IMG/VR virus record: IMGVR_UViG_3300028840_006907
Coordinates: 256,001 to 320,000 of that record
Reading direction: 5' to 3' (one strand)
Origin: a virus
DNA length: 64,000 bases
Under the pieces are notes generated by a model. It had not been told where the DNA came from. It searched no databases and was given only the letters and a program-made list of their open reading frames with translations. Positions 39,321 through 57,631 of this stretch are shown here, one piece after another. Both the position numbers and the translations under genes were made by a program. Position 1 is the first letter of the stretch; each line of letters begins with the position of its first letter.

Positions 39321-39322
39321 TT

Positions 39323-39610: not shown

Positions 39611-39611
39611 A

Positions 39612-40247
39612 ATGAAAAAAGGGCTATTTTTTACTTTTGAAGGTATTGATGGTTGTGGCAAAAGTACTCAATTAAGATTATCTACAGAATATCTTAAAAC
39701 TAAAAATATCCCTCATATAGTGACCCGAGAACCGGGAGGTACACCACTAGCAGAGAAAGTCAGAGAAATAATATTATCCCCACAGAATGATATTAAAGAT
39801 CGAGCTGAAGTTTTATTATACCTTGCTTCTAGAGCACAACATGTGGAAGAAAAGATAATCCCGGCAATGGAGCAAGGTAAAATTGTGCTTTGTGATCGTT
39901 TTCAGGAAGCTACATTTGCTTATCAAGGATTTGGTCGTGGTTTTTTAAGAGAGACTTTAGAAGTTTTAAATAATTTCTCTACTGATGGGTTGCAGCCAAC
40001 AAGGACCTTTATTTTTGATGTGAGTCTTAAATGTGCTAGTGAGAGATTAAAGAAGACCGGTAAAGCTCCGGATCGGCTTGAGCAAAATTCTCTTGAATTT
40101 TTTAGTAAAGTACGACAGGGTTTTTTTTCTCTAGCTGAAATTCATTCTGATCGAATACATCTTATTAATAGTGAGAAACCTATAGATGAAATTTTTGAAA
40201 TTGTTAAAAAAGATATAAACAAATATATAGATTATGGAAGCATATAA
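39612..40247 (+). CDS. tmk: thymidylate kinase
   Basis: Start set at MKKGLFFTFEGIDGCGKST (P-loop) rather than upstream track start; VTREPGGT motif present. Confidence 0.8.
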   Translation: MKKGLFFTFEGIDGCGKSTQLRLSTEYLKTKNIPHIVTREPGGTPLAEKVREIILSPQNDIKDRAEVLLYLASRAQHVEEKIIPAMEQGKIVLCDRFQEATFAYQGFGRGFLRETLEVLNNFSTDGLQPTRTFIFDVSLKCASERLKKTGKAPDRLEQNSLEFFSKVRQGFFSLAEIHSDRIHLINSEKPIDEIFEIVKKDINKYIDYGSI

Positions 40248-40401
40248 ACTTTGTCCTCGATGTGGGGAATTGGTACCATTCAATACATATTTTGGTGGGT
40301 ATTTTTGTAAGTGTGGTTGGAAAGATGATACTTTTGATAAAGAGCGTATTGCTGCTATGAGAAAATGGAAACTACCAAAATCTTCAGATGGAATTATTTA
40401 A
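40234..40401 (+). CDS. small zinc-ribbon protein (55 aa)
   Basis: ATG ORF below track cut-off; CPRCGELV...CKCGW; overlaps tmk 3' end by 14 nt. Confidence 0.3.
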   Translation: MEAYKLCPRCGELVPFNTYFGGYFCKCGWKDDTFDKERIAAMRKWKLPKSSDGII

Positions 40402-40681
40402 GTTCATACCATTCTGGCATTGCTTCTTTTTTTGAAAGTTTTCGTTGTACCTTTATAGATGTTTTAGGTTCATTTTTAACATATACTTTGTTATATCCCA
40501 GGGATTCCTGGGGATTTAATTCCATATCATTTGTTATTTCAAAAGAGATACCAGAAAAATCACTCTCTATTCTAACTCTTCTTTTATTATTCTCCTTCGA
40601 TTTTTTAACTGCTCTAAGAAGTTCTCTTAATGTTTTTTCGGTAAGATGTATCGTACTTTTATCGATATTTATATGAGGCAT
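40394..40681 (-). CDS. hypothetical basic protein
   Basis: Start at ATG (track TTG start at 40693); protein-like K/E-rich composition, preferred over the F/L-rich + strand ORF 40365-40676. Confidence 0.45.
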   Translation of the reverse strand: MPHINIDKSTIHLTEKTLRELLRAVKKSKENNKRRVRIESDFSGISFEITNDMELNPQESLGYNKVYVKNEPKTSIKVQRKLSKKEAMPEWYELK

Positions 40682-40930
40682 ATTCCCACCCAATAAATTT
40701 TATAGCCGATCAAAAATTAAAGATAATATAATGCATTTCTAAATTTCAAATTTCCTTTAATTCAAAGGGTATTTCAGTGTCTCTTTGTGGCTCTTCAGTT
40801 TAATAATCATTTAATATTAGCTTCTAATTAGGTAGAGTTATACAAGAAATATTTATGAATAAATTCGATTATCTATTAATAGTTAACCGTTTTAAAAGCA
40901 TAGAAAATCTTAGGAATAAAAAGAGGCTGT

Positions 40931-42280
40931 ATGGAACAAAAATTATCGGTTATAGGATTAGGTAAATTGGGCTGTACAATGATGGTATGTTTTGCTCATA
41001 AAGGATGGGAAGTTATAGGGGTTGATGTTAATGAATTAACTATTGAAACTATTCTACGAGGTCGGAGTCCTATCGATGAACCTTTTGTAGAAGAGATGAT
41101 AAGTGATAATGCAGAAAGGATAAGAGTAACATCTGATTGTGAAAATGCTGTTTTAAATAGTGATGTAAGTTTTGTAATAGTTCCTACTCCCAGTAAGGAA
41201 GATGGGTCTTTTTCGACAGAATATGTTGAAAATGCTACAATGGAAGTTGCGAAAGCTTTGACAAAAAAGAACTCTTATCATTTAATTGTAATTACTTCTA
41301 CTGTTCTTCCTGGAGACAGTCTTCGAATTTCTTATGAGATTGCTCGGGAGTCAGGGAAAGAACTAGGAAAGGATTTCGGTGTTGTTTATAATCCTGATTT
41401 CATAGCACTCGGTAAAATTGTCAGCGATTTTTTAAACCCTGACATGATCCTTATCGGTGAGTACGATGAGAAGTCAGGAGATATCATTCAAGACATACAC
41501 CTGAAACTTATAGATAGTAATCCTACTTTTCATAGGATGAATTTCTTTAATGCTGAACTGGCGAAAATTTCTCTTAATGCCTACTGTACTTTGAAAATTA
41601 CTTTTGCGAACATAATCGCGGAGATATGTGAGAATTTACCTGGCGGTGATTCTAATAAAGTCTTAAGTGCTGTAGGAGCTGATAGTCGGGTGGGTCAAAA
41701 ATATCTCAAAGGTGGTTTGGGGTACAGCGGACCATGTTTTCCGCGTGATAATCGAGCCCTCGCCCATTCTGCAAGGTTCTTTGGCACTACAAATTATTTC
41801 TGTGAGATGACAGATGCAATAAACAACTATCATAAAACAGAAAGAATATGCAATCTTTTATTGGGGTACATGGAAGAAAAGAACACAAAAGAATTAGCTA
41901 TACTTGGTTTATCCTATAAGGAAGATACTCCTGTGATTGAAGAATCTGTATCTATTTCAGTTATAAAAACTCTTTGGGAAAAAGGAATGAATATAAAAGT
42001 TTTTGATCCGGTTGCTATGGAAAATGCAAAAAGAGAATTAGAAGGTTATGATAATATTTATTATGCCTCTTCTGAATATGATTGTATAGATGGTACTTCC
42101 GTTTGTTTTATAGCTACTCCTTGGAAACAGTTCTTTAGTTTGAATCATCAAGAAGTAATAAAAAGAATGAAAAAGAGTTCTATTATTCTTGACTCATGGG
42201 GAGTATTACCTTATGACAGAGCAACTAATAGAGGCAAAAAAGTAGAGGTAAAACAACTAGGGAAAAATTATCAATCGTAA
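40931..42280 (+). CDS. UDP-sugar 6-dehydrogenase family protein (UDP-glucose/UDP-ManNAc dehydrogenase-like)
   Basis: 449 aa; N-terminal Rossmann GLGKLG; catalytic-Cys region GGLGYSGPCFPRD. Confidence 0.75.
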   Translation: MEQKLSVIGLGKLGCTMMVCFAHKGWEVIGVDVNELTIETILRGRSPIDEPFVEEMISDNAERIRVTSDCENAVLNSDVSFVIVPTPSKEDGSFSTEYVENATMEVAKALTKKNSYHLIVITSTVLPGDSLRISYEIARESGKELGKDFGVVYNPDFIALGKIVSDFLNPDMILIGEYDEKSGDIIQDIHLKLIDSNPTFHRMNFFNAELAKISLNAYCTLKITFANIIAEICENLPGGDSNKVLSAVGADSRVGQKYLKGGLGYSGPCFPRDNRALAHSARFFGTTNYFCEMTDAINNYHKTERICNLLLGYMEEKNTKELAILGLSYKEDTPVIEESVSISVIKTLWEKGMNIKVFDPVAMENAKRELEGYDNIYYASSEYDCIDGTSVCFIATPWKQFFSLNHQEVIKRMKKSSIILDSWGVLPYDRATNRGKKVEVKQLGKNYQS

Positions 42281-42342
42281 AAATTAGATATAAGAAGTCT
42301 CATTGAGACTATTCAATAAAATAATAAATAGGAATAAAAAAG

Positions 42343-43146
42343 ATGCCGAGATTAAGCTTTATTGTCACTGGACGAAATGACAATTATGACCAAAATTTTA
42401 ATGAACGTTTAACCATCGCTTTAAGAAGAAATATAAAATCCCTTCCAGACGCTGAATTCATTTTTGTAGAATGGAATCCTTATTTAGACCGCCCATTAAC
42501 ATGTTCAAAATTAAAAAGGACTTTTGGAGATCGAGTTAAATATTATGTAGTTCATCCTAAATATCATAAATATTATTGTAACATTGATGGTTTTCTTGAA
42601 TACCCTCCAAAAAATATCGGAATACGTAAGGCTACAGGTGAATTTATTATTTGTACAAATTCAGATGTAATTTTTTGTCCAGATCTAGTTCATTGTATGA
42701 ATATGCATTTGGAAAAAAATGTCCTTTATCGTGCTACTCGAATTGATATCCGACCAGATTATCTTAATGTAAGTTTCCCCCTTCATCCAAAATTTAAGCT
42801 TGAAACAAATCAAGGTCCTATGAATGCAGCGGGTGATTTTCTTTTAATGCATCGGGATCTATGGTATAAAACTACTGGTTATTGCGAGGAATACCCGTGG
42901 CAGAGATTACATAAAGATGCTCAGATAGTTTATTTGCTTTCTAATAAAAGAGGGTATGAAGTTCGAAACATAGGATCTATGACACATTGGAGACATCCTA
43001 GCTCCTGGTCTAATGGAAAATGTCGAGCTAGAGTAGGTGATGTGAATTGGGATTTTCAAAAATGTAATTACAAAATGAATAAAAAAACATGGGGTCTCAC
43101 GTTTACAGATGAGGTCGAAAAAGACGGCATAATTTGGCTAATTTAA
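42343..43146 (+). CDS. putative glycosyltransferase (GT-A fold)
   Basis: 267 aa; GT2-like NIGIRKATGEFIICTNSDVIF. Confidence 0.4.
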   Translation: MPRLSFIVTGRNDNYDQNFNERLTIALRRNIKSLPDAEFIFVEWNPYLDRPLTCSKLKRTFGDRVKYYVVHPKYHKYYCNIDGFLEYPPKNIGIRKATGEFIICTNSDVIFCPDLVHCMNMHLEKNVLYRATRIDIRPDYLNVSFPLHPKFKLETNQGPMNAAGDFLLMHRDLWYKTTGYCEEYPWQRLHKDAQIVYLLSNKRGYEVRNIGSMTHWRHPSSWSNGKCRARVGDVNWDFQKCNYKMNKKTWGLTFTDEVEKDGIIWLI

Positions 43147-43176
43147 ATTTACATATAGATATTGAAAGGAGATTGT

Positions 43177-44151
43177 ATGAAACGTATATTGGTTACTGGA
43201 GCAGGCGGTTTTATTGGAGGCCATTTAGTCACTCGATTGAAAGAGGAGGGCTATTGGGTTCGTGGAGTTGATATTAAAGAGCATGAATATAAGAAGACTG
43301 ATGCAGATGAATTTTATCTTAAAGATTTGAGAATAATGCAAAATTGTCTTACTTCATGCGCTGATATTGATGAATGTTATACATTAGCTGCTGACATGGG
43401 TGGTGCAGGATTTGTTTTTACTGGTGAGAATGATGCTGATATCATGCATAATTCTGCGAAGATAAATTTAAATATGGCTGAAGCTTGCCGAATACAAGGA
43501 GTAAAGAAGATATTTTATTCCTCTTCAGCGTGCATGTATCCTGCTCATAATCAAACCGATCCGGATAATCCTTTACTTTCTGAGGATTCTGCTTATCCTG
43601 CAGCTCCCGATAGTGAATACGGGTGGGAAAAACTTTTCTCAGAACATCTTTATTTAGCTTATAACAAAAATTATGGACTGGATGTTCGTGTGGCAAGATT
43701 TCATAATATTTTTGGAGTTTTGGGAACATGGCAAGGTGGAAGAGAAAAAGCTCCTGCTGCATTGAATCGTAAAGTAGCTATGGCTAAAGATGGTGATGTA
43801 ATCGAAGTGTGGGGACCTGGTACTCAAACACGTTCTTTCCTTTATATAGAGGAATGTATTGAAGCAGTACGTCGTTTCATGGAATCAGATTTTTTAGGCC
43901 CTGTAAATATAGGTTCTGAAGAAATGATTTCAATAAACGATCTTGCGAAAATGGCCATAGATATTAGTGGTAAAAAACTTACTATCAAAAATGTGGAAGG
44001 TCCTGTAGGAGTTATGGGCCGTAATTCAGATAATAATTTATATGAAGAAAAGGTTGGATGGAGACCTTCAAAACCTTTACATTATGGTATGGAAAAGACT
44101 TATGCTTGGATAAGTGATCAAATTAAACAAATTTATCCCTTTAGAAAATAG
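43177..44151 (+). CDS. NAD-dependent nucleotide-sugar epimerase/dehydratase (SDR family)
   Basis: Start at ATG with AAAGGAG RBS (track TTG start at 43162); VTGAGGFIGGHL; YGWEK (YxxxK). Confidence 0.75.
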   Translation: MKRILVTGAGGFIGGHLVTRLKEEGYWVRGVDIKEHEYKKTDADEFYLKDLRIMQNCLTSCADIDECYTLAADMGGAGFVFTGENDADIMHNSAKINLNMAEACRIQGVKKIFYSSSACMYPAHNQTDPDNPLLSEDSAYPAAPDSEYGWEKLFSEHLYLAYNKNYGLDVRVARFHNIFGVLGTWQGGREKAPAALNRKVAMAKDGDVIEVWGPGTQTRSFLYIEECIEAVRRFMESDFLGPVNIGSEEMISINDLAKMAIDISGKKLTIKNVEGPVGVMGRNSDNNLYEEKVGWRPSKPLHYGMEKTYAWISDQIKQIYPFRK

Positions 44152-44154
44152 CTT

Positions 44155-44856
44155 ATGGAATTAATAACAAAAGCAGTTATAATGGCTGGTGGAGAGGGTA
44201 CTCGGTTAAGACCTTATACAGAAATGACTCCTAAAGCAATGTTAGAGGTTAACGGTATTCCTCTCTTACGTTTAATGATAGAGAGACTTCATAGTTTTGG
44301 TATAACTCATTTCTATTTAAGTGTAAATTATCTCTCGAAAGTAATCTGTGATTATTTCGGTGATGGATCTAAATTTGGGATTAATATCACTTATATAAAA
44401 GAACCTTATTCGATGGGGACCGCAGGTTCAATTAGTATGGTTGATATTGAAGAACCTTTTTTGGTTATAAATGGAGATGTTTATACCAGTCTTGATTTTA
44501 GAGATCTCTTTGTAGAATTTAGAAGATCTAAATCAGATCTATTAATATGTTGTAGGGAGCAATTATTAAAAACAGATTATGGTGTTATTGTAAAAGAAGA
44601 TGACAGGATAACTTCCTGGGTTGAAAAACCTGAGTTTACTCATTACATAAGTTGTGGTATCTATGTATTCAAACCAGAGATTGTAAAATATATACCTAAA
44701 GAACATTTTTTTAATATGAATCATTTAGCTGAAGCGGTTATTGAAAAGAATAAAAAAGCTGGATTTTATTTAATGGATGATCTAGATATCTGGATTGATA
44801 TAGGAACTATTGAAGAATATAATAAGGTCAAGGAATTGTTAACAGTAAAAAAATAA
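44155..44856 (+). CDS. sugar-phosphate nucleotidyltransferase
   Basis: 233 aa; AVIMAGGEGTRLRPYT motif. Confidence 0.75.
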   Translation: MELITKAVIMAGGEGTRLRPYTEMTPKAMLEVNGIPLLRLMIERLHSFGITHFYLSVNYLSKVICDYFGDGSKFGINITYIKEPYSMGTAGSISMVDIEEPFLVINGDVYTSLDFRDLFVEFRRSKSDLLICCREQLLKTDYGVIVKEDDRITSWVEKPEFTHYISCGIYVFKPEIVKYIPKEHFFNMNHLAEAVIEKNKKAGFYLMDDLDIWIDIGTIEEYNKVKELLTVKK

Positions 44857-44865
44857 GAGGATAAA

Positions 44866-45759
44866 GTGAGAGTTGTATTTATTGGTTGCGTCAATTTCAG
44901 TAAAGCAATGTTGGAATATGCTTTAGAAATAGAGTGCCTTGAAATAGTGGGTATCGTGACAAAATCAGAATCCAATTTTAATACAGATTTCTGTTCTTTG
45001 GCCCCTTTAGCCCAGGAACATAATATTTCTTATCTTTTATACGATCAATTAAAATCGGAAAGTGGACTCAATAGTTGGGTTGAATTAAAATTTCCTGATG
45101 TGATCTTTTGTTTTGGTTGGTCCCATTTATTAAAAGCTGAACTTATAGAAATTCCTAAAATAGGAGTCATAGGACATCATCCTACAATGCTTCCTAAGAA
45201 TAGAGGGCGACATCCAGTAATATGGGCGTTAGCTTTAGGATTGGAGTATACTGCTTCAACTTTTTTCTTTATAGATCCTGGGGTGGATTCTGGGGATATT
45301 CTAGATCAAATCCCTGTAAATATAAATTTTGATGATGATGCTAGTATTCTCTATCAGAAGATCACAGTGACTGCAGGAAAGCAATTAAAAACATTTTCTC
45401 CTCTTTTGGAGAAAGGAGAATATATAGTTGTTAAACAAGATATGAGTAAAGCTACATGGTGGAGAAAAAGGTCAAAAGCTGATGGATATATTGATTGGCG
45501 TATGAGTTGTTTTTCCATTCATAATTTAGTCCGGGCTTTGACTTGTCCTTATGTAGGGGCTCATTGTGAATTTAACAATAGGGATATAAAGATCTGGAAA
45601 GTTAGAATAATGTATAAAGGATTAGATGATATTGAACCAGGTAAAATAATCGATTTAAATAGAAATAAAAATGAAATCTATATAAAGTGCGGGGATGGAG
45701 TTATGTGTATCTATGATCATGAATTTGATCCTCTGCCTGAGATCGGAACTTATTTATGA
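44866..45759 (+). CDS. sugar N-formyltransferase (formyl_trans_N family)
   Basis: 297 aa; GTG start after AGAGGA; HPTMLPKNRGRHP matches HxSLLPxxRG; C-terminal domain as in Fmt-like enzymes. Confidence 0.65.
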   Translation: MRVVFIGCVNFSKAMLEYALEIECLEIVGIVTKSESNFNTDFCSLAPLAQEHNISYLLYDQLKSESGLNSWVELKFPDVIFCFGWSHLLKAELIEIPKIGVIGHHPTMLPKNRGRHPVIWALALGLEYTASTFFFIDPGVDSGDILDQIPVNINFDDDASILYQKITVTAGKQLKTFSPLLEKGEYIVVKQDMSKATWWRKRSKADGYIDWRMSCFSIHNLVRALTCPYVGAHCEFNNRDIKIWKVRIMYKGLDDIEPGKIIDLNRNKNEIYIKCGDGVMCIYDHEFDPLPEIGTYL

Positions 45760-46415
45760 AAATTATTGCCATTGCACCTCATCCTGATGATGAGACTCTG
45801 GGATGTGGTGGTACACTCTTGAAGCATCGGGATGCCTCAGATGATATTTATTTGGTTCTTGTTACTACAGCAGGTTCTGAATACAGTGAAGAGCATATCA
45901 ATAATAAATACAAAGAAATAGATAATGCCAACGAGATTTTTGAATTTAAGACTATCTTCGATTTGGGTTTCCCTGTTACTCATATTGGTTCTATAGATAT
46001 ATCAGAAATAATTGGTAAACTAATGGACACATTTAAATTAGTGGGTCCCGATATTATTTATGTTCCTTTCCCGTATGATATTCATACTGATCATCAAGTT
46101 GTTTTTGATGCGGTTTCTTCGTGTACAAAATGGTTCAGAATACCTACTTTGAAAAGAATACTAGCCTATGAAACTATATCTGAAACAGATTTTATTATTA
46201 GACCCGGTCCTTCTTTTATCCCTAATGTTTTTGTCAATATTGAAGATCACATTGATAAAAAGATAGAGGCTATGAAATGCTATGCTAGTGAAATTGCTAT
46301 GCCTCCTTTTCCTCGTAGTGAGGAGAATATCAGAGCCCTGGCAACATTAAGAGGTTCAACATCTGGTTTCAAAGCTGCGGAAGCTTTCATGTTGTTAAAG
46401 GAGATAGATGAATGA
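45756..46415 (+). CDS. PIG-L/LmbE family deacetylase
   Basis: 219 aa; AIAPHPDDETLGCGGT motif; ATGA overlap with upstream gene. Confidence 0.7.
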   Translation: MKIIAIAPHPDDETLGCGGTLLKHRDASDDIYLVLVTTAGSEYSEEHINNKYKEIDNANEIFEFKTIFDLGFPVTHIGSIDISEIIGKLMDTFKLVGPDIIYVPFPYDIHTDHQVVFDAVSSCTKWFRIPTLKRILAYETISETDFIIRPGPSFIPNVFVNIEDHIDKKIEAMKCYASEIAMPPFPRSEENIRALATLRGSTSGFKAAEAFMLLKEIDE

Positions 46416-47380
46416 GTAAAAAAGTTTTAGTTACTGGTGCAGGAGGATTTATAGGATCTCATTTAGTAAAACGGCTCATGGAATATGGGTATGATGTTAC
46501 AGCACTGGTAAAATATAATGCAAATGGTTCTTGGGGCTGGTTAGACACATTTCATCGTTCTGTAATCAAAGATATTAGAGTAGAGTTGGGTGATGTTCGG
46601 GATCCGGAACAAATGATGAGATATAAAAACATGGATATTATTTTCCATTTAGCTGCTTTGATAGGTATCCCTTATTCCTATGTAGCTCCTCGTTCATATG
46701 TCGATACCAATATAAACGGTACTTTAAACATGCTTCAGGTTTGTCGGGAAAATGGAGCTACTTATATTCATACATCAACTTCTGAGGTATATGGTACAGC
46801 CCTTTATGAACCTATTGATGAAAAACATCCTATCCAAACACAGAGTCCATATTCAGCTACAAAAAGTGCTGGAGATAGTTTAGCAAAGAGTTATTATCTT
46901 TCCTTCGATTTGCCCGTTATTATAGTAAGACCATTCAATACTTTTGGAACACGTCAATCTTTAAGAGCTGTTATTCCCACTATTATCAGTCAGGCATGTA
47001 AAGATGATGTTATAAAACTTGGAGATCCAAGTACCATGAGAGATTTCATTTTTGTGGATGATACTGTAGAAGGCTTTATAAAGGCCGCTGAGAGGGGAAA
47101 ATCTGGAGAGACTTATAATATAGGTTATGGCAAAAAAAGGTCAATAAGAAGTATTGTGGATGACGTAGGCAATATATTAGGTAAAGTTTTAAAAATTGAA
47201 TCGGAACCAGAGAGAATGCGACCTCCGAAGAGTGAGGTAAGAGTTCTTGTTTGTAATAATGAAAAAGCAAAAAAAGAATTGGGATGGGATATTAAATGGC
47301 CTTTTAAAAAAGGGTTGGAATATTTGATCTACGATTGGCAACGAGAAAACAAAGAAAGTAAAGATTTTTATCATGTCTAG
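46412..47380 (+). CDS. NAD-dependent nucleotide-sugar epimerase/dehydratase (SDR family)
   Basis: 322 aa; VTGAGGFIGSHL; YSATK (YxxxK). Confidence 0.75.
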   Translation: MSKKVLVTGAGGFIGSHLVKRLMEYGYDVTALVKYNANGSWGWLDTFHRSVIKDIRVELGDVRDPEQMMRYKNMDIIFHLAALIGIPYSYVAPRSYVDTNINGTLNMLQVCRENGATYIHTSTSEVYGTALYEPIDEKHPIQTQSPYSATKSAGDSLAKSYYLSFDLPVIIVRPFNTFGTRQSLRAVIPTIISQACKDDVIKLGDPSTMRDFIFVDDTVEGFIKAAERGKSGETYNIGYGKKRSIRSIVDDVGNILGKVLKIESEPERMRPPKSEVRVLVCNNEKAKKELGWDIKWPFKKGLEYLIYDWQRENKESKDFYHV

Positions 47381-48449
47381 TATATTTTTACACATACCTC
47401 ATATAGGGGAAGAGGAAAAGGCAGAAGTAAATAAGGCTCTTAATACTGGAGAATTGACCTGTGGAAATTATTTAAATCAATTTGAAAAAGAATTAAGTGA
47501 AAGGATAAATTCTCCTGTTGTTTTATGCTCTTCTGGAACAGCAGCTTTGCAATTAGGTCTACATGCTATGGGTATAGGTCCAGGAGATGAAGTAATTGTT
47601 CCTAATATGTCTTTTGTTTCGACTATAAATTCTGTTTTATATATGGGTGCTACCCCAGTTTTGTGCGATGTAGGTGATCCTGAATACGAGCTTTCCATTG
47701 ATCCTGAAGAAATAATCGATCTCATAACTCCTCGAACTAAAGCTATAATGGTATCTCATCTTTGTGGGGGATACGGTGACATTGAAAAGATATTAGATAT
47801 AGCTAGTGCGTATAAAGTTGATGTCATTGAAGATGCTGCTCAGGCAGTAGGTTGTACTATGAATGGCAAAGCTTTGGGAACATTTGGAAAGTTTGGTGTC
47901 TATTCATTTAATGGGAATAAAATTATCACCACAGGTGGTGGAGGCACTCTTTTAACTTCAGATCGTGGAATGAGTCAGAGAGTACGAAATCTTCTTAATC
48001 AAGCGAAAGACATTTTAAATCCTTTTTCTCATATAGAGATGGGGTATAATTATAGAATCAGTAATATCCATGCTGCGATAGGTTGTGCTCAATTAAAAAA
48101 ATTAGACTCTTTTATTGATAAGAAAAAATTTATTCATGAGACCTATAAAAAGAAGTTAGACATAATAACTTATAAGGAAAAATCCAATTATTGGTTGAAT
48201 GTTTATAAAGTAAAAAAATTTAATCCTTATGAAGCTGTTTGGAATCTGGATTACAAAAGCATAGAGACTCGTCCTATTTATACCCCTTTTCATATGATGG
48301 ATTTTCTTAAAAAATATGGTGAGGATGAATACCCGGTTTCAGAGAAATTATATAACAGTCTTTTTTGTTTGCCATCTTATTTATCTCTTGATGAAGAGAT
48401 AATCGATAAAGTAGTGGATGAAATAAATAATTTGGAGAATAGTGAATGA
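47373..48449 (+). CDS. DegT/DnrJ/EryC1-type PLP-dependent sugar aminotransferase
   Basis: 358 aa; conserved layout with PLP-lysine region YSFNGNKIITTGGGG. Confidence 0.75.
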   Translation: MSSIFLHIPHIGEEEKAEVNKALNTGELTCGNYLNQFEKELSERINSPVVLCSSGTAALQLGLHAMGIGPGDEVIVPNMSFVSTINSVLYMGATPVLCDVGDPEYELSIDPEEIIDLITPRTKAIMVSHLCGGYGDIEKILDIASAYKVDVIEDAAQAVGCTMNGKALGTFGKFGVYSFNGNKIITTGGGGTLLTSDRGMSQRVRNLLNQAKDILNPFSHIEMGYNYRISNIHAAIGCAQLKKLDSFIDKKKFIHETYKKKLDIITYKEKSNYWLNVYKVKKFNPYEAVWNLDYKSIETRPIYTPFHMMDFLKKYGEDEYPVSEKLYNSLFCLPSYLSLDEEIIDKVVDEINNLENSE

Positions 48450-49141
48450 AAAAACATATCCTTTTGATGTTTAATATGGGAAATAGTGGTGGGAAGTATT
48501 TCGAAGATATTTGTAATACTCACGAAGATGTTCAGATATGGCAAGAAGCAAATCACCTTTTAAAAGTAGATCATCTTGAGACACCAGTTCAGTTCGACAG
48601 GGTATATGCTTTTTTCATGAAACAGTATGAAGAAAATAAGAAAAAAACCATCGGATTAATAAAAGCTTTTGATCATCGGTTAATAGGATTGGCTGAAAGA
48701 ACTGGTGGGTCTATCATGCAGATGTTCAGACATCCTGTAGGTGTGGTGGGTTTTAAGACAGGCCATAAAATGGCTGAGTGTGAACAGAGAGGTTTGTTTG
48801 ACAAACTAGACACACCTGAAAAGATTTTTGAAGCTCATGTGGATTTTTATGCCTCAATATATAATTCCTATACGAAGAATGCTCATAAGTGGCCTGTTGT
48901 TAAATTAGAGGATTTAAAAAAGTCTTTACGGGAAAGAACTCCGTATTTTGAAGATGTAATGAAAAAAGCGCTGAAAGTTGACTGGCAACCGAAACATACA
49001 AAAAAAGTTATTAATATGGGAGGGCTTGAAGAGAATAGAGATCATTTTGATATTTGGAAATCATGGGAAGATTGGAAGAAAGATATTTTTCTGAAGTATT
49101 TCCAGGAAATAATGAAATTGTATATGTATGAATGGGAATGA
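48446..49141 (+). CDS. sulfotransferase-like protein (paralog of 52367-53158)
   Basis: 231 aa; MFNMGNSGGKYF and RHPVG motifs; shared C-terminal W..W.W.KK..F.KYF signature with 52367-53158. Confidence 0.4.
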   Translation: MKKHILLMFNMGNSGGKYFEDICNTHEDVQIWQEANHLLKVDHLETPVQFDRVYAFFMKQYEENKKKTIGLIKAFDHRLIGLAERTGGSIMQMFRHPVGVVGFKTGHKMAECEQRGLFDKLDTPEKIFEAHVDFYASIYNSYTKNAHKWPVVKLEDLKKSLRERTPYFEDVMKKALKVDWQPKHTKKVINMGGLEENRDHFDIWKSWEDWKKDIFLKYFQEIMKLYMYEWE

Positions 49142-49155
49142 TAGGAGGACGAAGT

Positions 49156-50151
49156 ATGAAAAATTTGGAAATCATAGCTGAGTTCGGAACTAATCATGTC
49201 GATCCTAATGGTAAAGTTCTTGAAAATATTGAGGATTTGATACATACACTAGCAGACAAAGGAGCGACTGCAGTTAAATTTCAGCTTTTTAAAGCTGATA
49301 ATTTAGTAGAAAAGAATACTGAAGTACATGGCCTTATAAAAAATTTGGAAATTGCTCTTGAAGAGCATGTCAGATTAAAAAAGATCTGCGAAGAAATAGG
49401 TTTGCGGTATCTTTGCACTCCTTTTTGCGTTGAGTCTTTGGATGCTCTTCTTAGTATAGGAGTAAAGGAAATAAAAATAGCCAGTTGTGATTGTGGTAAT
49501 TTACAATTGATGTCAGATATTGTACAACGTCATAACAAAATTCATCGAGTTATAATGGCTACAGGTATGTCAACATTGAATGAAATTGGTGTTTCCATTG
49601 ACATCCTTATTGATGGAGGATTTAATATTGATCTTTTACATTGTACAAGTGTTTACCCTACACCGATATACCGAGCTTCTCTAGACATGATAAGAGTCTT
49701 AAAAAAGAAGTGGGGTTTATTTAATATAGGATATTCGGATCATACATTGGGGACTGAAGTGGTGGGTATAGCCCGAGCTATGGGTTGTACCATTTTTGAA
49801 AAGCATGTAACTCCTGATAGAACAATGCCCGGTTTTGATCATGCTTATTCTTTTCCTATTGATGAATTTGATAAATATGTCGATGCTATCAAGAATGTCG
49901 ATCAGATAATAGGAGAAGAAAGAAAATACGTAGATAAAAAAGAAGCAGTATCTCGTGATGCCATGAAAAGAGGCATATGGTTTAAAAAAGAAGTGTTTAA
50001 AGGGCAGAAAATAACCAGAGATGATATCATTGTACGAAGACCGTTGAAAGGGGCCGTTAACCAGACTTACTATTTTTCTGTTCTTGGTAAAAAAGTAAAG
50101 AAGAATTTTAATGAGGATGATCCCGTTTTAACGGAGAATTTATATGAGTAA
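49156..50151 (+). CDS. nonulosonic acid synthase (NeuB/PseI/LegI family)
   Basis: Start at ATG with AGGAGG RBS (track start 49132); IIAEFGTNH motif near N-terminus; length ~331 aa typical of NeuB. Confidence 0.7.
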   Translation: MKNLEIIAEFGTNHVDPNGKVLENIEDLIHTLADKGATAVKFQLFKADNLVEKNTEVHGLIKNLEIALEEHVRLKKICEEIGLRYLCTPFCVESLDALLSIGVKEIKIASCDCGNLQLMSDIVQRHNKIHRVIMATGMSTLNEIGVSIDILIDGGFNIDLLHCTSVYPTPIYRASLDMIRVLKKKWGLFNIGYSDHTLGTEVVGIARAMGCTIFEKHVTPDRTMPGFDHAYSFPIDEFDKYVDAIKNVDQIIGEERKYVDKKEAVSRDAMKRGIWFKKEVFKGQKITRDDIIVRRPLKGAVNQTYYFSVLGKKVKKNFNEDDPVLTENLYE

Positions 50152-51052
50152 AATAGGAATTCGATGTGATTGTGGACCGGTAATGGGCATGGGTCATATA
50201 TCTAGGCAGAAACTTATTTATGAAGAACTCATGAAATTGGACCACGAAGTTTCTTTTTTTGTAAAAAGAGAACGGAACATAGTTAAATCAATGGGACTTC
50301 CACTTTCAAATAAGATTTTAATGGATACAATGGATACTTTGATAATTGATTTAGTGGAAGGTTTTGAGGATTATGATTTTCCTCGAACTAAAATAGTTTT
50401 TTATGATGGTCCGGAAATGATACATTGTGATGCTGATATCATTTTTGCTTTAAATTATAAACAACAGAAATCCTGGTATAGAGGAACGGGTTATTATGTT
50501 GGGCTAGATTATATCCCGATGGATCCCAGCATTTCTAAAATAGAGAAAGAATTTGGTAATTTAGAAAAAATATTAATTATGACAAGTGGAATCGATCCTT
50601 GGGATATGCCAGGACAAATAGTTAGAGTTATTAAGGATCTGGGTTATGACATCACAGTTAAATTATCTAATGCTTATCCAAAAGATTGGATCAGTAAACT
50701 TGAGAAACATGCTGAGATAATTTTAAATGTGGATAGTGTTGCTTCATTATATGAAGAATATGATTTAATGATATGTACTGCAGGAAATGTGTTGTTCGAG
50801 GCTGCTGTAGCTGGTTTACCCTGTATAAGTTTTTCGACGGGTAAAGTTCAGGAGGGCCATGGGGCGTTTATGAGTGACAAAGGTTTTTCAGTTCATCTTG
50901 GAGGCTTTTGGAATAATACTGCTGAAGTTGGTTATTTGTCTGATGCTATAAAATTTTTAGCTGATAGATCGGATAGAGAACAAAGATCTGAGATAGGTCG
51001 TTCTATTTGTGATGGTAAAGGATTAGAAAGGATAATAAATATTATAGGGTAA
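50144..51052 (+). CDS. PseG-like UDP-sugar hydrolase / GT-B family protein
   Basis: 302 aa; IRCDCGPVMGMGHISR resembles the PseG R.D...G.GH..R signature; GT28-like C-terminal segment. Confidence 0.5.
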   Translation: MSKIGIRCDCGPVMGMGHISRQKLIYEELMKLDHEVSFFVKRERNIVKSMGLPLSNKILMDTMDTLIIDLVEGFEDYDFPRTKIVFYDGPEMIHCDADIIFALNYKQQKSWYRGTGYYVGLDYIPMDPSISKIEKEFGNLEKILIMTSGIDPWDMPGQIVRVIKDLGYDITVKLSNAYPKDWISKLEKHAEIILNVDSVASLYEEYDLMICTAGNVLFEAAVAGLPCISFSTGKVQEGHGAFMSDKGFSVHLGGFWNNTAEVGYLSDAIKFLADRSDREQRSEIGRSICDGKGLERIINIIG

Positions 51053-51055
51053 AAT

Positions 51056-51718
51056 ATGAAAACTATCGCATTTACATTGCCAGTAAGAAAGAACAGTCAA
51101 AGAGTAAAAAATAAAATGTTAAGACCTTTTGCAGGGAGAAGTTTATTTGAGATCTATTTGGATAAAATCGAATGTTTCAAACATTTGGTTTATGTTGTTG
51201 CCTATGAAGAAGAATTTATTAACATAGCTAAAAAAAGGGGATTTAAATATCTTCATAGAAGTGAAGAGTCTGCTAATGGGGAAACTTCTCCAGTTATCCA
51301 TAGTTATTTAAATGAGATGAAAGAAGATTTCATTTTTATGGCAACTGCGTGTTGTCCTTTGATGAAGACAGAGACTTTGAAAAATATCATGGTAGAGCTA
51401 TGTTCAAAACTCCATGATCCTAATTATCACGGTTTAATAACTGTAAAAAGATGTGGTAATGCTATTTGGAATTCAGAGAAGAAAGTAATGAATGATGATG
51501 TTCGAACTTTCAATACTAAGTTAAGAAAACCTTTTTACATCGAGACTAGTTCCGTTTTTGTTTTTAGACGTGAAAGATTTCTTAAACTAGGTGCATATTG
51601 GGATTTTGGTGATAAAGATCCCGATCTTTATGAAATTAATTCAATTGAAGCTACTGATATTGATACAATGGATGATTTCGAAGTAGCTGAAATACTTTAC
51701 AAAAGAAGGTTGTCATGA
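51056..51718 (+). CDS. CMP-nonulosonic acid synthetase-like cytidylyltransferase
   Basis: 220 aa; N-terminal PVRKNSQRVKNK as in acylneuraminate cytidylyltransferases. Confidence 0.55.
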   Translation: MKTIAFTLPVRKNSQRVKNKMLRPFAGRSLFEIYLDKIECFKHLVYVVAYEEEFINIAKKRGFKYLHRSEESANGETSPVIHSYLNEMKEDFIFMATACCPLMKTETLKNIMVELCSKLHDPNYHGLITVKRCGNAIWNSEKKVMNDDVRTFNTKLRKPFYIETSSVFVFRRERFLKLGAYWDFGDKDPDLYEINSIEATDIDTMDDFEVAEILYKRRLS

Positions 51719-52374
51719 AAAATTATGGCTATGCTGATATGAGTGAAAAAGAAAAATTATCTAAAGAACAAGTATTAGAATTTTGGAAAAATCCTATAAA
51801 CGATAATACTAATAAAAATGAGAACAATGATCCTGAGCATTATTTGAGTGGGGAAAAACGTAGCCGATATCTCGTTGAATTAATTAAAAGGCATTTACAT
51901 AAAGAAGCAAAAATATTAGAGATTGGTTGTAATGTCGGGAGGAATTTGCATTATCTATATGAAACAGGTTATAACAATTTAAATGGGATAGAAATTAATG
52001 ATAATGCTGTTCAAGTGATGCATAAAAATTATCCCGAATTATATGGAAGTGTAGGAATTTATAATTGTCCGGTTGAATCTATTATTACATCTTTTTCCGA
52101 TGAAGCCTATGACTTGGTCTTTACAATGGCTGTTTTAGAGCACATTCATTATGAGAGTGATTTCATTTTCTCTGAGATAGCTCGGGTAGCCAAAAGATGT
52201 ATAATTACAATTGAAGATGAAAAAACTACCTGGAGTAACAGACATTTTCCTCGTAATTATAAGGAGGTGTTTGAGAAGATCGGGAATTGGGTACAGATTT
52301 ATGATATGAATTGTGGTGGGATTAATATACTTGATGATCGATTTTGGGTAAGGGTATTTAAAAAGAATGTCTAA
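51715..52374 (+). CDS. class I SAM-dependent methyltransferase
   Basis: 219 aa; motif I ILEIGCNVGRN. Confidence 0.65.
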   Translation: MKNYGYADMSEKEKLSKEQVLEFWKNPINDNTNKNENNDPEHYLSGEKRSRYLVELIKRHLHKEAKILEIGCNVGRNLHYLYETGYNNLNGIEINDNAVQVMHKNYPELYGSVGIYNCPVESIITSFSDEAYDLVFTMAVLEHIHYESDFIFSEIARVAKRCIITIEDEKTTWSNRHFPRNYKEVFEKIGNWVQIYDMNCGGINILDDRFWVRVFKKNV

Positions 52375-53158
52375 ACGAATAGTGTTAGTCAGAAATATGG
52401 GAAACAGTGGCGGTGCCTGGTTAATGAAGGTATTTAATATGCATGAAAACATATTAATGTTTCAGGAATTAAACCAGATACTGAGGTTAAGATATGATTA
52501 TTCGGATATAAATAAGAAGAATCTAAATTACCCTCATGTTGACTATGATGTAAAAATAGCTCAACGGAGTCGTGATCTTAAAGGATTTTTATTTAATAGT
52601 AGAACTCAGTGTCATATAGCAACTAGTTTTCTTTTATATCAATATGATATTAGAAAAGAAGATGCGATTGGGTTAATAAAATGTTTTGATCATGAATCTA
52701 TAAGAGAATGTAGAGTAAAATGTCCTTCTGTTAAAGTTGTACAAGTTTTAAGAAATCCTATTGGTATAATAGATTTTTATATGAGTCAGGAAAATTTAAG
52801 GCAAATAGCCCATCATGATCCATATGAAATATCTTTTAAAAAACATGTGGATTTCTTTCATAATAAATTTATAGATTTTTGGGAAAATAATGAAAAAAAA
52901 GGTGAGAAAATTATACGACTAGAAGATTTGAATATATCATTGAAAGATGGAAATCCTTTCTTAAAAGACACTATGGAAGATTTATTTGAAGTTAATTTCT
53001 CAAATGAATTTATTGAAAAAATCAAACAAAATTTAGGTTATGGGAATGAAGGTAACCAGAATAAAGAGATATGGCAAAACTGGGAAGGATGGAAAAAAGA
53101 ATATTTCAAGAAATATTTCGAAAATCTAATGATGAATCTTGGCTATGAATTGAGGTGA
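52367..53158 (+). CDS. sulfotransferase-like protein
   Basis: 263 aa; VRNMGNSGGAWL (5'-PSB-like) and LRNPIGIIDFYMS (3'-PB-like); paralog of 48446-49141. Confidence 0.4.
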   Translation: MSKRIVLVRNMGNSGGAWLMKVFNMHENILMFQELNQILRLRYDYSDINKKNLNYPHVDYDVKIAQRSRDLKGFLFNSRTQCHIATSFLLYQYDIRKEDAIGLIKCFDHESIRECRVKCPSVKVVQVLRNPIGIIDFYMSQENLRQIAHHDPYEISFKKHVDFFHNKFIDFWENNEKKGEKIIRLEDLNISLKDGNPFLKDTMEDLFEVNFSNEFIEKIKQNLGYGNEGNQNKEIWQNWEGWKKEYFKKYFENLMMNLGYELR

Positions 53159-53161
53159 TAA

Positions 53162-54443: not shown

Positions 54444-54444
54444 T

Positions 54445-56570: not shown

Positions 56571-56571
56571 T

Positions 56572-56610
56572 AGGGGTAAAGAAGTTTCTCTACCCCTACA
56601 TGCACATTTT
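56572..56610 (+). terminator. candidate terminator hairpin
   Basis: 7-bp stem AGGGGTA/TACCCCT with 12-nt loop, T-run shortly downstream; weak. Confidence 0.3.
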
Positions 56611-56661
56611 AACCACAATCCCATCTTATGGCTAAAAATATAATAAAAGGATGATACAAGA

Positions 56662-57601: not shown

Positions 57602-57631
57602 TTTTAAATCAACTCTAAATTTTCCAGGAGT

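Follow-up and report, generated by a model that had tools for sequence, protein, structure and literature searches.

A nonulosonic acid gene cassette within a glycosylation island of a huge tailed phage

The carrier phage and its virion module

The window, a 64-kb stretch of DNA, derives from a contig of 388,651 bp, and the locus lies more than 120 kb away from both contig ends. All genes described here are on the plus strand. The virion module includes a 1117-aa portal protein (11131–14484; phrog_16240, 105.8 bits), a head maturation protease-like protein (17421–18989; phrog_18299, 48.4 bits), and the major capsid protein (20565–21437; phrog_2522, 181.8 bits). The portal-like part of the first corresponds to about residues 700–1000, and the protein is 50% identical across 369 aa to that of LR745208.1, an uncultured phage of 485 kb; the capsid protein is 76.6% identical to its LR745208.1 counterpart and 39.9% identical to that of Bacillus phage G. 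The NeuB of the window is also found on a second contig of 469,617 bp, and neither GC content nor GC skew changes between the structural genes and the glycan cluster. The carrier is a huge tailed phage, with contigs of ~389–470 kb and Bacillus phage G as a distant relation. The capsid, portal, and protease genes on a huge-phage contig rule out a cellular chromosome as the source, and the cluster is carried by a virus, as had been proposed.

Immediately upstream of the capsid gene is a gene (19986–20549) coding for a 187-aa Ser/Thr/Asn/Ala/Gly-rich protein with no match in a family search. Its previously noted Ser/Thr/Asn richness is evident (28.9%, where the window averages 16.9 ± 4.9%), and it is possibly a decoration protein and, as an acceptor, only a candidate. 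A 40% identical copy is present in LR745208.1, the nearest relative, in which NeuB was looked for and is absent, and the composition is thus not tied to the nonulosonic acid (NulO) pathway.

Layout of the glycosylation island

The glycosylation island spans 28 kb (29866–57480) and consists of a conserved framework into which a swappable NulO cassette (about 44155–54443) is inserted. It contains at least six glycosyltransferase (GT) domains, six methyltransferase domains, and one sulfotransferase. The first GT gene, at the island start, codes for a 693-aa GT2–TPR–methyltransferase fusion (29866–31947; Pfam Glycos_transf_2 63.8 bits, TPR repeats, Methyltransf_11 39 bits; phrog_13126, 120 bits), which joins a TPR protein-binding domain to a glycosyltransferase. 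It is separated from a weak GT2-like 243-aa protein (32703–33434; Glycos_transf_2 20.3 bits, under cutoff) by a truncated paralogue of the major capsid protein (31957–32706), residues 122–196 and 215–246 of which align with capsid residues 50–124 (32% identity, E 1e-10) and 246–277 (47% identity), respectively; capsid-protein-like sequences are found inside the island in two phages. Further along are a 994-aa GT2 + GT1/GT4 + methyltransferase fusion (36336–39320; Pfam) belonging to the conserved framework, 60–66% identical in L091 and L093, loci of related phages, and a thymidylate kinase (39546–40247, JGI start 39582; Thymidylate_kin 145.4 bits).

Preceding the cassette are a nucleotide-sugar 6-dehydrogenase (UDP-Glc dehydrogenase-like; 40931–42280; TIGR03026 334.8 bits, cutoff 189.8) with 56–67% identity in L003, L091, and L093, a GT-A fold glycosyltransferase (42343–43146; AF2 model, pLDDT 91.9), and a GDP-mannose 3,5-epimerase homologue of the SDR family (43162–44151; Pfam Epimerase 139.9 bits) that is about 60% identical to cultured cyanophage genes. 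Foldseek matches the GT-A protein to chondroitin polymerase, heparosan synthase, and SpsA at E about 1e-9, and it has at least 75 relatives (46–85% identity), several of them on contigs of 469–590 kb. The dehydrogenase and this SDR were formerly counted among the NulO-pathway genes, but the SDR matches PDB 2C59 at 353 bits (E 1.5e-104) and is rejected as a NulO enzyme. The three genes form a separate module, which is kept by related phages of 512 kb and 590 kb that lack the NulO genes.

To the right of the cassette the framework tail comprises a Methyltransf_24 methyltransferase (54379–55116, JGI start 54445; 61% identity in L091), a 228-aa protein with a weak arylamine N-acetyltransferase-like match (55109–55795; Acetyltransf_2 22.1 bits, slightly under cutoff; 33–57% identity in L003, L091, and L093), a second GT-A-like protein (55767–56570; 53–58% identity in relatives), and a SAM methyltransferase (56662–57480; Methyltransf_31 82.5 bits; 58–66% identity in relatives), which is the last plus-strand gene of the island. 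The second GT-A-like protein aligns with the family of the first (hhalign probability 87.8%, E 3.3e-6). From 44155 to 56570 adjacent ORFs overlap by 4–29 nt or stand 1–9 nt apart, an operon-like packing that cannot be due to chance. Multi-pass membrane proteins, flippases, polymerases, and phosphoglycosyltransferases are missing from the 28-kb island, and none of its genes was recognised as a member of a CMP-NulO transferase family.

The preliminary description placed the cluster at 40931–51718, directly downstream of the portal and capsid genes. The ORFs listed for it all exist on the plus strand at the positions assigned to them; two others within that range (42343–43146 and 48446–49141) were left out, and the cluster continues unbroken to 57480. 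It does share the strand of the virion genes, but the capsid gene ends at 21437, 19.5 kb short of 40931, and over 20 ORFs lie in between.

The phage contigs L091 (512 kb) and L093 (590 kb) retain the framework, with the large GT, dehydrogenase, GT-A, epimerase, and tail methyltransferases at 53–73% identity, and lack the NulO genes; in L091 a Kdo-8-P synthase (248.9 bits, cutoff 242) and a cytidylyltransferase occupy their place. L003 (a 49-kb contig) has a syntenic cluster at 53–76% amino-acid identity, which may be a sign of selection on the pathway.

The nonulosonic acid cassette and its predicted product

Families were assigned with Pfam and NCBIfam profiles, NCBIfam scores being compared with the model cutoffs, and all ten ORFs named previously match their families. 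The first cassette gene encodes a sugar-1-phosphate nucleotidylyltransferase (44155–44856; NTP_transferase 128.2 bits) with an intact GxGTR motif; among the relatives, this gene is present only in the one that shares NeuB. The enzyme scores highest in NCBIfam on mannose-1-P guanylyltransferase (135.6 bits, under cutoff), and it probably makes a GDP-hexosamine substrate. Next is an ArnA/Fmt-like formyltransferase-family protein (44866–45759; Formyl_trans_N 61.8 bits, Formyl_trans_C 68.8 bits), with matches to the ArnA N-domain (108.8 bits) and the GDP-perosamine N-formyltransferase WbkC (47 bits). Its earlier designation as an N-formyltransferase agrees with these matches at the family level only, and N-formylation of an amino sugar is putative: at the presumed catalytic triad positions, those of ArnA and Fmt, His105 and Asp are kept but Asn is replaced by Gly in both orthologues, and the protein may be inactive or have a different chemistry. 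It is followed by a PIG-L/LmbE-type de-N-acetylase (45756–46415; PIG-L 75.1 bits) with a PHPDDE motif and an HTDH stretch.

The second SDR is a LegB-type NAD-dependent 4,6-dehydratase (46412–47380; TIGR04180 390.4 bits, cutoff 475) with intact SDR GxxGxxG and YxxxK motifs (GAGGFIG and YSATK). It scores 73.9 bits on the Gmd model, and a PseB-type identity is rejected (57.7 bits, cutoff 407.75). The LegC-type PLP aminotransferase (47373–48449; DegT 311.7 bits) scores 303.8 bits on TIGR04181 against 207.4 on PseC; the unnamed sugar aminotransferase 7B0M is its top solved structure (227 bits) and GDP-perosamine synthase the nearest named one (213 bits). An uncharacterised 231-aa protein (48446–49141), with 44 relatives and no family match, is a paralogue (29% identity, E 2e-34) of another uncharacterised protein (52367–53158, JGI start 52397) whose L003 orthologue is 53% identical. 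The NeuB-family synthase (49132–50151; Pfam NeuB 197.7 bits) scores 244.2 bits on the NeuB/LegI model versus 179 on PseI; the reported IIAEFGTNH motif begins at residue 14, and the residues invariant across 30 family members are present, including the conserved His pair. Adjoining it are a PseG/GT28-like GT-B protein, a putative nucleotide-sugar hydrolase (50144–51052; PseG model 63.6 bits, E 2e-17), and a CMP-sugar synthetase (cytidylyltransferase; 51056–51718; CTP_transf_3 39.9 bits; PseF 48.2 bits, under cutoff). The cassette also encodes a SAM methyltransferase (51715–52374; Methyltransf_11 44.7 bits; weak match to the Pse-associated methylase model TIGR03587, 45.4 bits), a hexapeptide-repeat acyltransferase (53162–53737; Hexapep 49.2, WbbJ-like 65.5, NeuD family 48.3 bits), and, at its approximate end, the sulfotransferase (53730–54443; Sulfotransfer_1 81.1 bits), which has a 38% identical counterpart in L003 but none in L091 or L093.

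These families provide the combined activities anticipated for a CMP-activated nine-carbon sugar, here of 5,7-diamino type, namely dehydration and amination, removal of the nucleotide, condensation with PEP, and activation with CMP, together with candidate N-acyl editing. We favor, with a probability of about 0.6, a full set of cytoplasmic enzymes for making a CMP-activated 5,7-diamino-3,5,7,9-tetradeoxy-nonulosonic acid, with the glycan most likely on virion proteins. The nucleotidylyltransferase (44155) would generate a GDP-hexosamine, which the LegB-type enzyme (46412) would 4,6-dehydrate and the LegC-type enzyme (47373) would aminate at C4. N-acyl editing by the PIG-L (45756) and formyltransferase-family (44866) proteins, and possibly the hexapeptide acyltransferase (53162), would precede nucleotide removal by the PseG-like protein (50144), condensation of the free sugar with PEP by NeuB (49132), and formation of the CMP-sugar by the cytidylyltransferase (51056). 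We infer this order and the nucleotide carrier, as well as the formylated nitrogen and the product stereochemistry. The methyltransferase, the sulfotransferase, and the two uncharacterised paralogues of the same operon probably add further modifications to the sugar or to the completed glycan.

No NulO-route enzyme reaches its NCBIfam equivalog cutoff, and the specificities are therefore predictions. The pathway is a hybrid, in that the dehydratase, aminotransferase, and synthase are of legionaminic type and the nucleotide-removing enzyme is PseG/GT28-like; the label of pseudaminic/legionaminic-like needs correcting to this combination, and the cluster matches neither textbook pathway. The Campylobacter jejuni legionaminic pathway comprises PtmE, LegB, LegC, LegH, LegG, LegI, and LegF, and the phage likewise has a nucleotidyltransferase, LegB-, LegC-, and NeuB/LegI-type enzymes, and a cytidylyltransferase in one operon. 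Unlike that pathway it has no clear LegH, with all scores under equivalog cutoffs, and the PseG/GT28-like protein stands in place of a LegG/NeuC hydrolysing 2-epimerase; with no LegG-type 2-epimerase in the cluster, the product cannot be called legionaminic acid. As in the pseudaminic pathway (PseB, C, H, G, I, and F), a small PseG-like GT-B gene adjoins the synthase and cytidylyltransferase genes, and the methyltransferase resembles a Pse-associated methylase; in contrast, the dehydratase is not PseB-type, a GNAT-type PseH is lacking, and the synthase is closer to NeuB/LegI than to PseI. The nearest cellular NeuB is 39% identical, and its clustered neighbours include Epimerase_2, CTP_transf_3, and CBS-NTP_transferase genes, as would fit a locus of legionaminic type.

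A sugar other than a 5,7-diamino NulO is improbable, an example being a route from GDP-mannose through N-formyl-perosamine to a 5-hydroxy-7-formamido Kdn-like acid. Such a route would account for the missing 2-epimerase, since its substrate is already manno-configured, and the guanylyltransferase, perosamine synthase, and WbkC matches of the nucleotidyltransferase (135.6 bits), aminotransferase (213 bits), and formyltransferase (47 bits) agree with it. However, the dehydratase scores 390 bits on LegB against 74 on GDP-mannose 4,6-dehydratase, the aminotransferase reaches 304 bits with LegC, and a PIG-L de-N-acetylase implies an N-acetylated substrate.

Among characterised systems, an archaeal pathway in Halorubrum sp. 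PV6 leads to 5-N-formyl-legionaminic acid (PMC6137143), and the formyltransferase-family gene of the phage cluster parallels HrrPV6_1050. The Halorubrum glycan includes hexuronic acid and sulfate, and the phage island similarly has a sugar dehydrogenase and a sulfotransferase; the virus HRPV-1, in contrast, borrows the host pathway (PMC6137143), whereas the phage encodes its own genes.

Possible targets of the glycan

Lipid-carrier machinery is absent, and cytoplasmic glycosylation of virion proteins, the acceptors that we infer, is therefore the best, if unproven, reading. Most likely, the soluble multi-domain glycosyltransferase–methyltransferase proteins would act in the cytoplasm late in infection, furnishing virion proteins with an acidic, methylated glycan. 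Chloroviruses and mimivirus have their own glycan machinery, and the GT–GT–methyltransferase multi-domain architecture of the phage recalls chlorovirus A064R. As in known cases of virus-encoded virion glycosylation, glycosyltransferases and sugar-nucleotide enzymes lie beside structural genes. Mycobacteriophage capsid and tail-tube glycans are reported by Freeman et al. 2023 (as cited in PMC12619734); unlike these mycobacteriophage, chlorovirus, and mimivirus systems, the phage system is a prediction from genes, and its sugar would be a nonulosonic acid. FlmG, a soluble transferase, adds pseudaminic acid from a CMP-NulO donor to flagellin, a cytoplasmic protein target, via a TPR substrate-binding domain (PMC7591256), and the 693-aa fusion is similarly soluble with a TPR module fused to a GT. 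The likeness is one of architecture: the phage protein has an N-terminal GT2 (GT-A), then TPR and methyltransferase, whereas FlmG has an N-terminal TPR and a C-terminal GT-B.

Alternatively, though we consider it unlikely, the island could remodel a host surface glycan (LPS, capsule, teichoic acid, or S-layer/pilin/flagellin glycan), with phage CMP-NulO and transferases feeding host pathways so as to block superinfection or keep progeny from re-adsorbing to debris. Sugar clusters of lytic cyanomyoviruses are customarily interpreted in this way, as was done both for the 24 'LPS' genes of P-SSM2 (PMC1079782) and for jumbo cyanophage clusters (PMC7824862). In T4-like cyanophage clusters (P-SSM2, PMC1079782; AG-345-L05) the GDP-mannose 3,5-epimerase homologue recurs at about 60% identity, and in AG-345-L05 (Kyanoviridae) NeuB-, LegC-, and LegB-like genes lie within about 5 kb, with the epimerase about 6 kb upstream. 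These NulO proteins are only 29–34% identical and belong to another phage lineage; the 31-kb AG-345-L05 locus has no PseG-like, formyltransferase, PIG-L, or cytidylyltransferase match. The exchange of NulO and Kdo cassettes also resembles serotype variation at bacterial surface-glycan loci. Against remodelling, the 28 kb include no initiating phosphoglycosyltransferase, flippase, polymerase, ligase, oligosaccharyltransferase, or multi-pass membrane protein, the phage has at least six soluble GT domains of its own, and the island adjoins the head genes in the same orientation.

Very unlikely is attachment of the sugars to phage DNA as glycosylated hypermodified bases evading restriction and CRISPR. 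We know of no NulO-modified DNA, and among the genes of the 64-kb window none was seen for base hydroxymethylation, TET/5mYOX-type or other base modification; the presence of a TPR domain, of sugar methyltransferases, and of a sulfotransferase suggests instead a chemistry of proteins or glycans. The thymidylate kinase within the island, and a nucleoside hydrolase and deoxyribosyltransferase-like gene at the same place in L093, nonetheless leave room for a DNA target, and phage glycosyltransferases elsewhere can hypermodify DNA with diverse glycans, according to a preprint (bioRxiv 10.1101/2023.12.21.572611).

We found no phage-encoded nonulosonic acid pathway described in the searchable literature. 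Relatives of the NeuB are present in 468 IMG/VR stretches, a cyanophage among them, and a virus-made glycan pathway of this kind is unusual, yet not unique.

Gene content and viral origin of the nonulosonic acid cassette

The ORFs listed in the preliminary description of this region all lie on the + strand, and each matches its named family in Pfam and NCBIfam profile comparisons. They code for a nucleotide-sugar dehydrogenase (40931–42280; TIGR03026, 334.8 bits, cutoff 189.8), two extended SDRs (43162–44151 and 46412–47380), an NTP_transferase (44155–44856), a formyltransferase-family protein (44866–45759; Formyl_trans_N and Formyl_trans_C, 61.8 and 68.8 bits), a PIG-L protein (45756–46415), a DegT aminotransferase (47373–48449), NeuB (49132–50151; Pfam 197.7 bits, cutoff 22.1), a protein matching the PseG model (50144–51052; 63.6 bits, E 2e-17) and a CTP_transf_3 protein (51056–51718; 39.9 bits, cutoff 22.6). 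The IIAEFGTNH motif reported for NeuB is found at residue 14, and the protein carries the residues invariant among 30 family members, including the conserved His pair. Motifs are also intact in the SDRs (GAGGFIG and YxxxK), PIG-L (PHPDDE) and the NTP-transferase (GEGTR). Consecutive ORFs between 44155 and 56570 either overlap by 4–29 nt or are separated by 1–9 nt, and this tight packing indicates a translationally coupled operon rather than a chance collection. A scan of 39000–58500 for promoter- and terminator-like sites was uninformative (79 promoters versus 94.6 expected, and 11 terminators versus 8.6 expected), and a tRNA scan found none.

The genes of virion structure and assembly in the window include a portal (phrog_16240, 105.8 bits), a head protease, a major capsid protein (MCP, 20565–21437; phrog_2522, 181.8 bits) and several 'virion structural protein' paralogues. 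The MCP is 76.6% identical to that of LR745208.1, a 485-kb uncultured phage that is the nearest deposited relative, 49.5% identical to that of Tunturiibacter phage Tunturi_5 (309 kb) and 39.9% identical to that of Bacillus phage G (498 kb); its phrog_2522 HK97-type capsid protein and its genome size of several hundred kb place the virus among the huge relatives of Bacillus phage G. A NeuB of identical sequence is encoded on JGI contig Ga0180437_10000019 (388,651 bp; locus 124,292–145,311) and also on a 469,617-bp contig, and six relatives of this NeuB share 51–81% identity with it. GC content (0.29–0.41, with positive GC skew) is uniform over the structural and sugar genes. The hallmark proteins, phage capsid relatives, large contigs and uniform GC therefore identify the region as viral, as first proposed, and not as a cellular chromosome with the sugar cluster lying outside a provirus. 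An archaeal virus was considered, as AglM and an archaeal GlmU are among the top models and the Halorubrum glycan is similar in composition, and was rejected on the bacterial-phage capsid relatives and the strong Shine-Dalgarno sites. We conclude that a huge phage very probably encodes a functional nonulosonic acid (NulO) biosynthesis cassette, with a probability of roughly 85%.

Two structural loci have further features. The portal ORF (11131–14484, + strand) encodes 1117 aa, of which the portal-family match covers only about residues 700–1000; faint terminase- and endonuclease-like matches fall in its N-terminal part, and the ORF may be a fusion or hold an inserted element. Three virion structural protein paralogues of 740, 763 and 407 aa (656–6959, + strand) have Ser/Thr/Asn contents of 27–28% and share the C-terminal motif NQ(L/V)N(M/L)T..NSPV(Y/F).G..(L/M), within which there is an N-x-T sequon.

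Pathway type and sugar modification

The dehydratase matches the LegB model TIGR04180 over its full length (390.4 bits, E 4.5e-117, cutoff 475), with PseB and Gmd scoring 57.7 and 73.9, and the aminotransferase scores best of all aminotransferase models with LegC (TIGR04181, 303.8 bits, cutoff 420; PseC 207.4). The synthase scores 244.2 bits with NeuB/LegI (TIGR03569, cutoff 399.65) versus 179 with PseI (cutoff 340.25). None of the three reaches its equivalog cutoff, and from the ranking of models all three are predicted to be legionaminic-type; the pairing of a NeuB/LegI-type synthase with a CMP-sugar synthetase, as in the legionaminic pathway, is present at the family level only. Among named proteins of solved structure, GDP-perosamine synthases are closest to the aminotransferase, and the nucleotidyltransferase scores best with mannose-1-P guanylyltransferase, relationships that would fit a GDP-linked route. 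A GDP-linked synthesis of legionaminic acid in Campylobacter jejuni was reported by Schoenhofen et al. in 2009.

Unlike the legionaminic pathway, the phage cassette has no LegG/NeuC, and a PseG-like GT-B protein is its candidate for the nucleotide-removal step. No hydrolysing 2-epimerase (Pfam Epimerase_2) is present in the island. The gene for the nearest cellular NeuB (39% identity) lies in a cluster with Epimerase_2, CTP_transf_3 and CBS-NTP_transferase genes. Between the synthase and cytidylyltransferase genes of the phage, an ORF codes for a 302-aa GT-B protein with a glycine loop, GMGHISR, containing an invariant His; PseG proteins (TIGR03590) are small GT-B proteins whose N-terminal glycine loop carries a His. 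The cassette differs from the pseudaminic pathway in lacking PseB and PseH and in the lower score of its synthase with PseI than with NeuB/LegI: the dehydratase falls far below the PseB cutoff of 407.75 (Polysacc_synt_2, TIGR03589) with no other candidate in the island, and no island protein has a Pfam GNAT match of the kind expected for the PseH acetyltransferase. The original description as pseudaminic/legionaminic-like thus narrows to three core enzymes predicted to be Leg-type and a putative PseG-type hydrolase without a 2-epimerase, a combination that corresponds to neither textbook route. With no 2-epimerase, the configurations of the hexose handed to NeuB and of the nine-carbon product are not deducible, and our confidence in the exact identity of the sugar is low. 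A recognisable CMP-NulO transferase (sialyltransferase families, Maf/DUF115) gave no Pfam match in any island ORF, with unknowns searched at E <= 10.

The formyltransferase-family protein has its closest relatives in the N-terminal domain of ArnA (108.8 bits) and in Fmt, and retains the catalytic His105 and the Asp of DSGD. At the position that we take, from ArnA and Fmt, to be the Asn of the Asn-His-Asp triad there is Gly, both in the window protein (Gly103) and in its orthologue in L003, a related 49-kb phage contig, where a second paralogue has Asn. The fold of the N10-formyl-THF-dependent sugar N-formyltransferases (ArnA N-domain, WlaRD, PseJ) is therefore present without the complete triad, and N-formylation is plausible, not secure. 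The hexapeptide protein (53162–53737) reaches 48.3 bits with TIGR03570 (the NeuD/PglB/VioB left-handed beta-helix family, to which LegH belongs; cutoff 160.8) and a higher score, 65.5, with the WbbJ O-acetyltransferase model, and one cassette methyltransferase weakly matches a Pse-associated methylase model. Together the PIG-L de-N-acetylase, hexapeptide acyltransferase, methyltransferase and sulfotransferase proteins could reshape acyl groups and add methyl, acetyl or sulfate.

Two further cassette ORFs (48446–49141 and 52367–53158) are paralogues (29% identity, E 2e-34) that belong to no known family; a set of 1.8 billion representative proteins includes only 44 relatives of them. The first, of 231 aa, is not a diverged copy of the second L003 formyltransferase, to which it has no similarity. 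Its GxSGG and RNP motifs suggested a divergent sulfotransferase, a reading that found no support: the hhalign probability is 1.2%, and only 1 of 37 members of its family weakly matches each sulfotransferase Pfam.

Extent and modular organization of the glycosylation island

The limits first given for the cluster, 40931 and 51718, are too narrow, as sugar genes run on both sides. Upstream are a 693-aa GT2-TPR-methyltransferase fusion (29866–31947), a weak GT2 (32703–33434) and a 994-aa GT2 + GT1/GT4 + methyltransferase fusion (36336–39320). Past 51718 the operon continues with a methyltransferase, a protein without a family, the hexapeptide acyltransferase and a Sulfotransfer_1 sulfotransferase (81.1 bits), followed by two methyltransferases, a weak arylamine-acetyltransferase-like protein and one more unannotated protein. 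Two unannotated 267-aa ORFs (42343–43146 and 55767–56570) are predicted glycosyltransferases: the modelled fold of the first (pLDDT 91.9) has a GT-A domain matching chondroitin polymerase, heparosan synthase and SpsA, and the second is its distant relative (hhalign 87.8%, E 3.3e-6). With the upstream fusions, the downstream operon genes and these two ORFs, the island thus spans approximately 29866–57480 and contains no fewer than six GT domains, along with six methyltransferase domains and a single sulfotransferase. Nucleotide-metabolism genes also occur within such islands, namely a thymidylate kinase at 39546–40247 in the window, and an inosine-uridine nucleoside hydrolase and a nucleoside deoxyribosyltransferase-like gene (2051–2971 and 6661–7125) in L093, a related 590-kb phage contig.

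Comparison with related phages separates the island into a framework and a variable cassette. The large multi-domain GT, the dehydrogenase, the GT-A protein and the first SDR are kept in L093 and in L091 (512 kb) at 53–73% identity, as are the tail genes (second GT-A and last methyltransferase); a Methyltransf_24 gene is kept in L091 (61%), and a 228-aa protein has counterparts in L091 (57% identity) and L093 (33%). None of the genes at 44155–54443 is present in L091 or L093, and L091 instead contains a 3-deoxy-8-phosphooctulonate synthase (248.9 bits, cutoff 242) and a cytidylyltransferase, a Kdo-type cassette. In L003 the NulO cassette is complete, with an identical gene order and 53–76% identity. 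The NulO genes thus form a variable cassette of about 10 kb, and the genes first listed do not all belong to one NulO pathway, three of them being framework genes kept where NulO genes are absent. The L091 segment (226–3622; JGI 3300037245) encodes Kdo-8-phosphate synthase, a methyltransferase, the cytidylyltransferase and a DapA/aldolase-like fusion. Here a cassette for an eight-carbon ulosonic acid stands where the NulO cassette would be.

The first SDR is strongly homologous to GDP-mannose 3,5-epimerase (353 bits, E 1.5e-104, PDB 2C59), and for this reason it was rejected as a partner of the dehydrogenase and formyltransferase in an ArnA-like route to Ara4N, the ArnA C-domain reaching only 35 bits. 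Copies about 60% identical are present in many cultured cyanomyoviruses, which accounts for the only megablast matches of the cluster to GenBank phages, 82–88 bp in length and within the epimerase gene. Among 50,697 GenBank phage records the framework GT-A has no match and the large GT is matched only in part and at low identity (up to 33%, covering no more than 36% of its length). At least 75 relatives of the GT-A protein share 46–85% identity with it, several of them on 469–590 kb contigs; L091 and L093 are the two of these contigs that were compared here. LR745208.1 has no NeuB match, and about 67 kb downstream of its capsid gene matches no window protein.

Putative mobile elements and a second gene block accompany these loci. 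The L003 dehydrogenase (1666–3588, 640 aa) has an Intein_splicing match and the L093 epimerase (10827–12770, 647 aa) a LAGLIDADG match, each gene probably being interrupted by an intein. The gene directly upstream of the first glycosyltransferase (28608–29783, + strand) codes for 391 aa with two HNH/endonuclease VII-like domains, possibly a homing endonuclease at the edge of the island. A convergent block on the – strand (58948–63513) codes for a Methyltransf_24-like protein, two proteins without an assigned family, and a split thiamine-diphosphate enzyme (E1_dh part 59859–60485, Transket_pyr part 61514–62038) with a radical SAM protein (60478–61545) between its parts; this block, whose first gene is 48% conserved in L091, may be more sugar-tailoring chemistry.

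NeuB is almost absent from deposited phage genomes, with homologues in 3 of 50,697 records (one of them in fact a Moritella contig, the others a 484-kb uncultured phage and a Kyanoviridae single-virus genome). A profile scan of IMG/VR, whose predictions may include cellular contamination, returned 468 stretches with NeuB relatives, all of 38% identity or less to the window NeuB and many with dehydratase, aminotransferase and cytidylyltransferase genes as neighbours; NulO genes are therefore recurrent in viral data. Two IMG/VR NeuB loci had no megablast match, and we found no description of a phage-encoded CMP-NulO pathway in the literature searched. In a survey of huge phages, the most abundant structural clusters include glycosyltransferases and a fold resembling UDP-glucuronate decarboxylase. 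Virus-encoded glycan biosynthesis is already known, and the notable features here are the hybrid Leg/PseG pathway and the swappable ulosonic-acid cassette, together with the two paralogues without a family and the capsid-like ORFs in the island.

Glycan acceptor and implications

The main alternatives for the glycan target are the virion and the host surface. Remodelling of the host surface is the classical reading of cyanophage sugar clusters (PMC1079782, PMC7824862) and the chief rival to a virion target here. However, the island encodes no protein with multiple transmembrane segments and no flippase, polymerase, phosphoglycosyltransferase or oligosaccharyltransferase; assembly on a lipid carrier is accordingly unlikely, which favours a target in the cytoplasm. 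Glycosylation of DNA by the island would be another outcome, which we rate as a minor alternative.

Several features point circumstantially to virion proteins, namely gene position, a TPR domain and capsid-like ORFs. The island adjoins the head genes and is co-oriented with them, and a TPR domain forms part of one of its glycosyltransferases (29866–31947). The TPR domain of FlmG binds flagellin, allowing a soluble GT to attach pseudaminic acid (PMC7591256), and the phage protein similarly combines a TPR domain and a GT in one polypeptide. A truncated MCP paralogue (31957–32706, + strand; E 1e-10 to capsid protein) lies between two GT genes and retains MCP residues 50–124 and 246–277 without the middle, and L093 has a full-length MCP-like gene (3808–4806, 44% identity) between the large GT and the dehydrogenase. 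The 187-aa protein proposed earlier as an acceptor has a Ser/Thr/Asn content of 28.9% and is also present in LR745208.1, a phage without NeuB. Overall we put the chance that virion proteins are the target at about even.

Nonulosonic acids are used by cells for self-marking, immune evasion and surface charge, and to our knowledge have until now been regarded as products of cells, bound or borrowed by viruses. Virus-made glycans are known in giant viruses and mycobacteriophages, and a phage encoding a whole CMP-NulO route with its own soluble transferases would extend these to sialic-acid-like sugars. The spike of HRPV-1 bears its host's 5-N-formyl-legionaminic acid (PMC6137143), whereas chemistry analogous to that of the Halorubrum sp. 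glycan is encoded here by the phage island itself.

In its most complete form, the proposal is that the virion is coated by a glycan with an undescribed NulO cap, made by a hybrid Leg-type/PseG-type pathway without a 2-epimerase and formylated, methylated and/or sulfated, and that related huge phages swap this cassette for a Kdo-type one; as a whole this is speculative and we consider it unlikely to hold in every part. The compact, co-linear and soluble enzyme set, which includes a putative PseG-type hydrolase in a legionaminic-type context and two paralogous proteins without a family, could be expressed for new NulO chemistry. The conserved framework with its swappable cassette, NulO here and Kdo in a relative, offers a way to probe diversifying selection on phage surface glycans. 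If the proposal is true, virion 'serotypes' would diversify via cassette exchange, like bacterial O-antigen and capsule loci.
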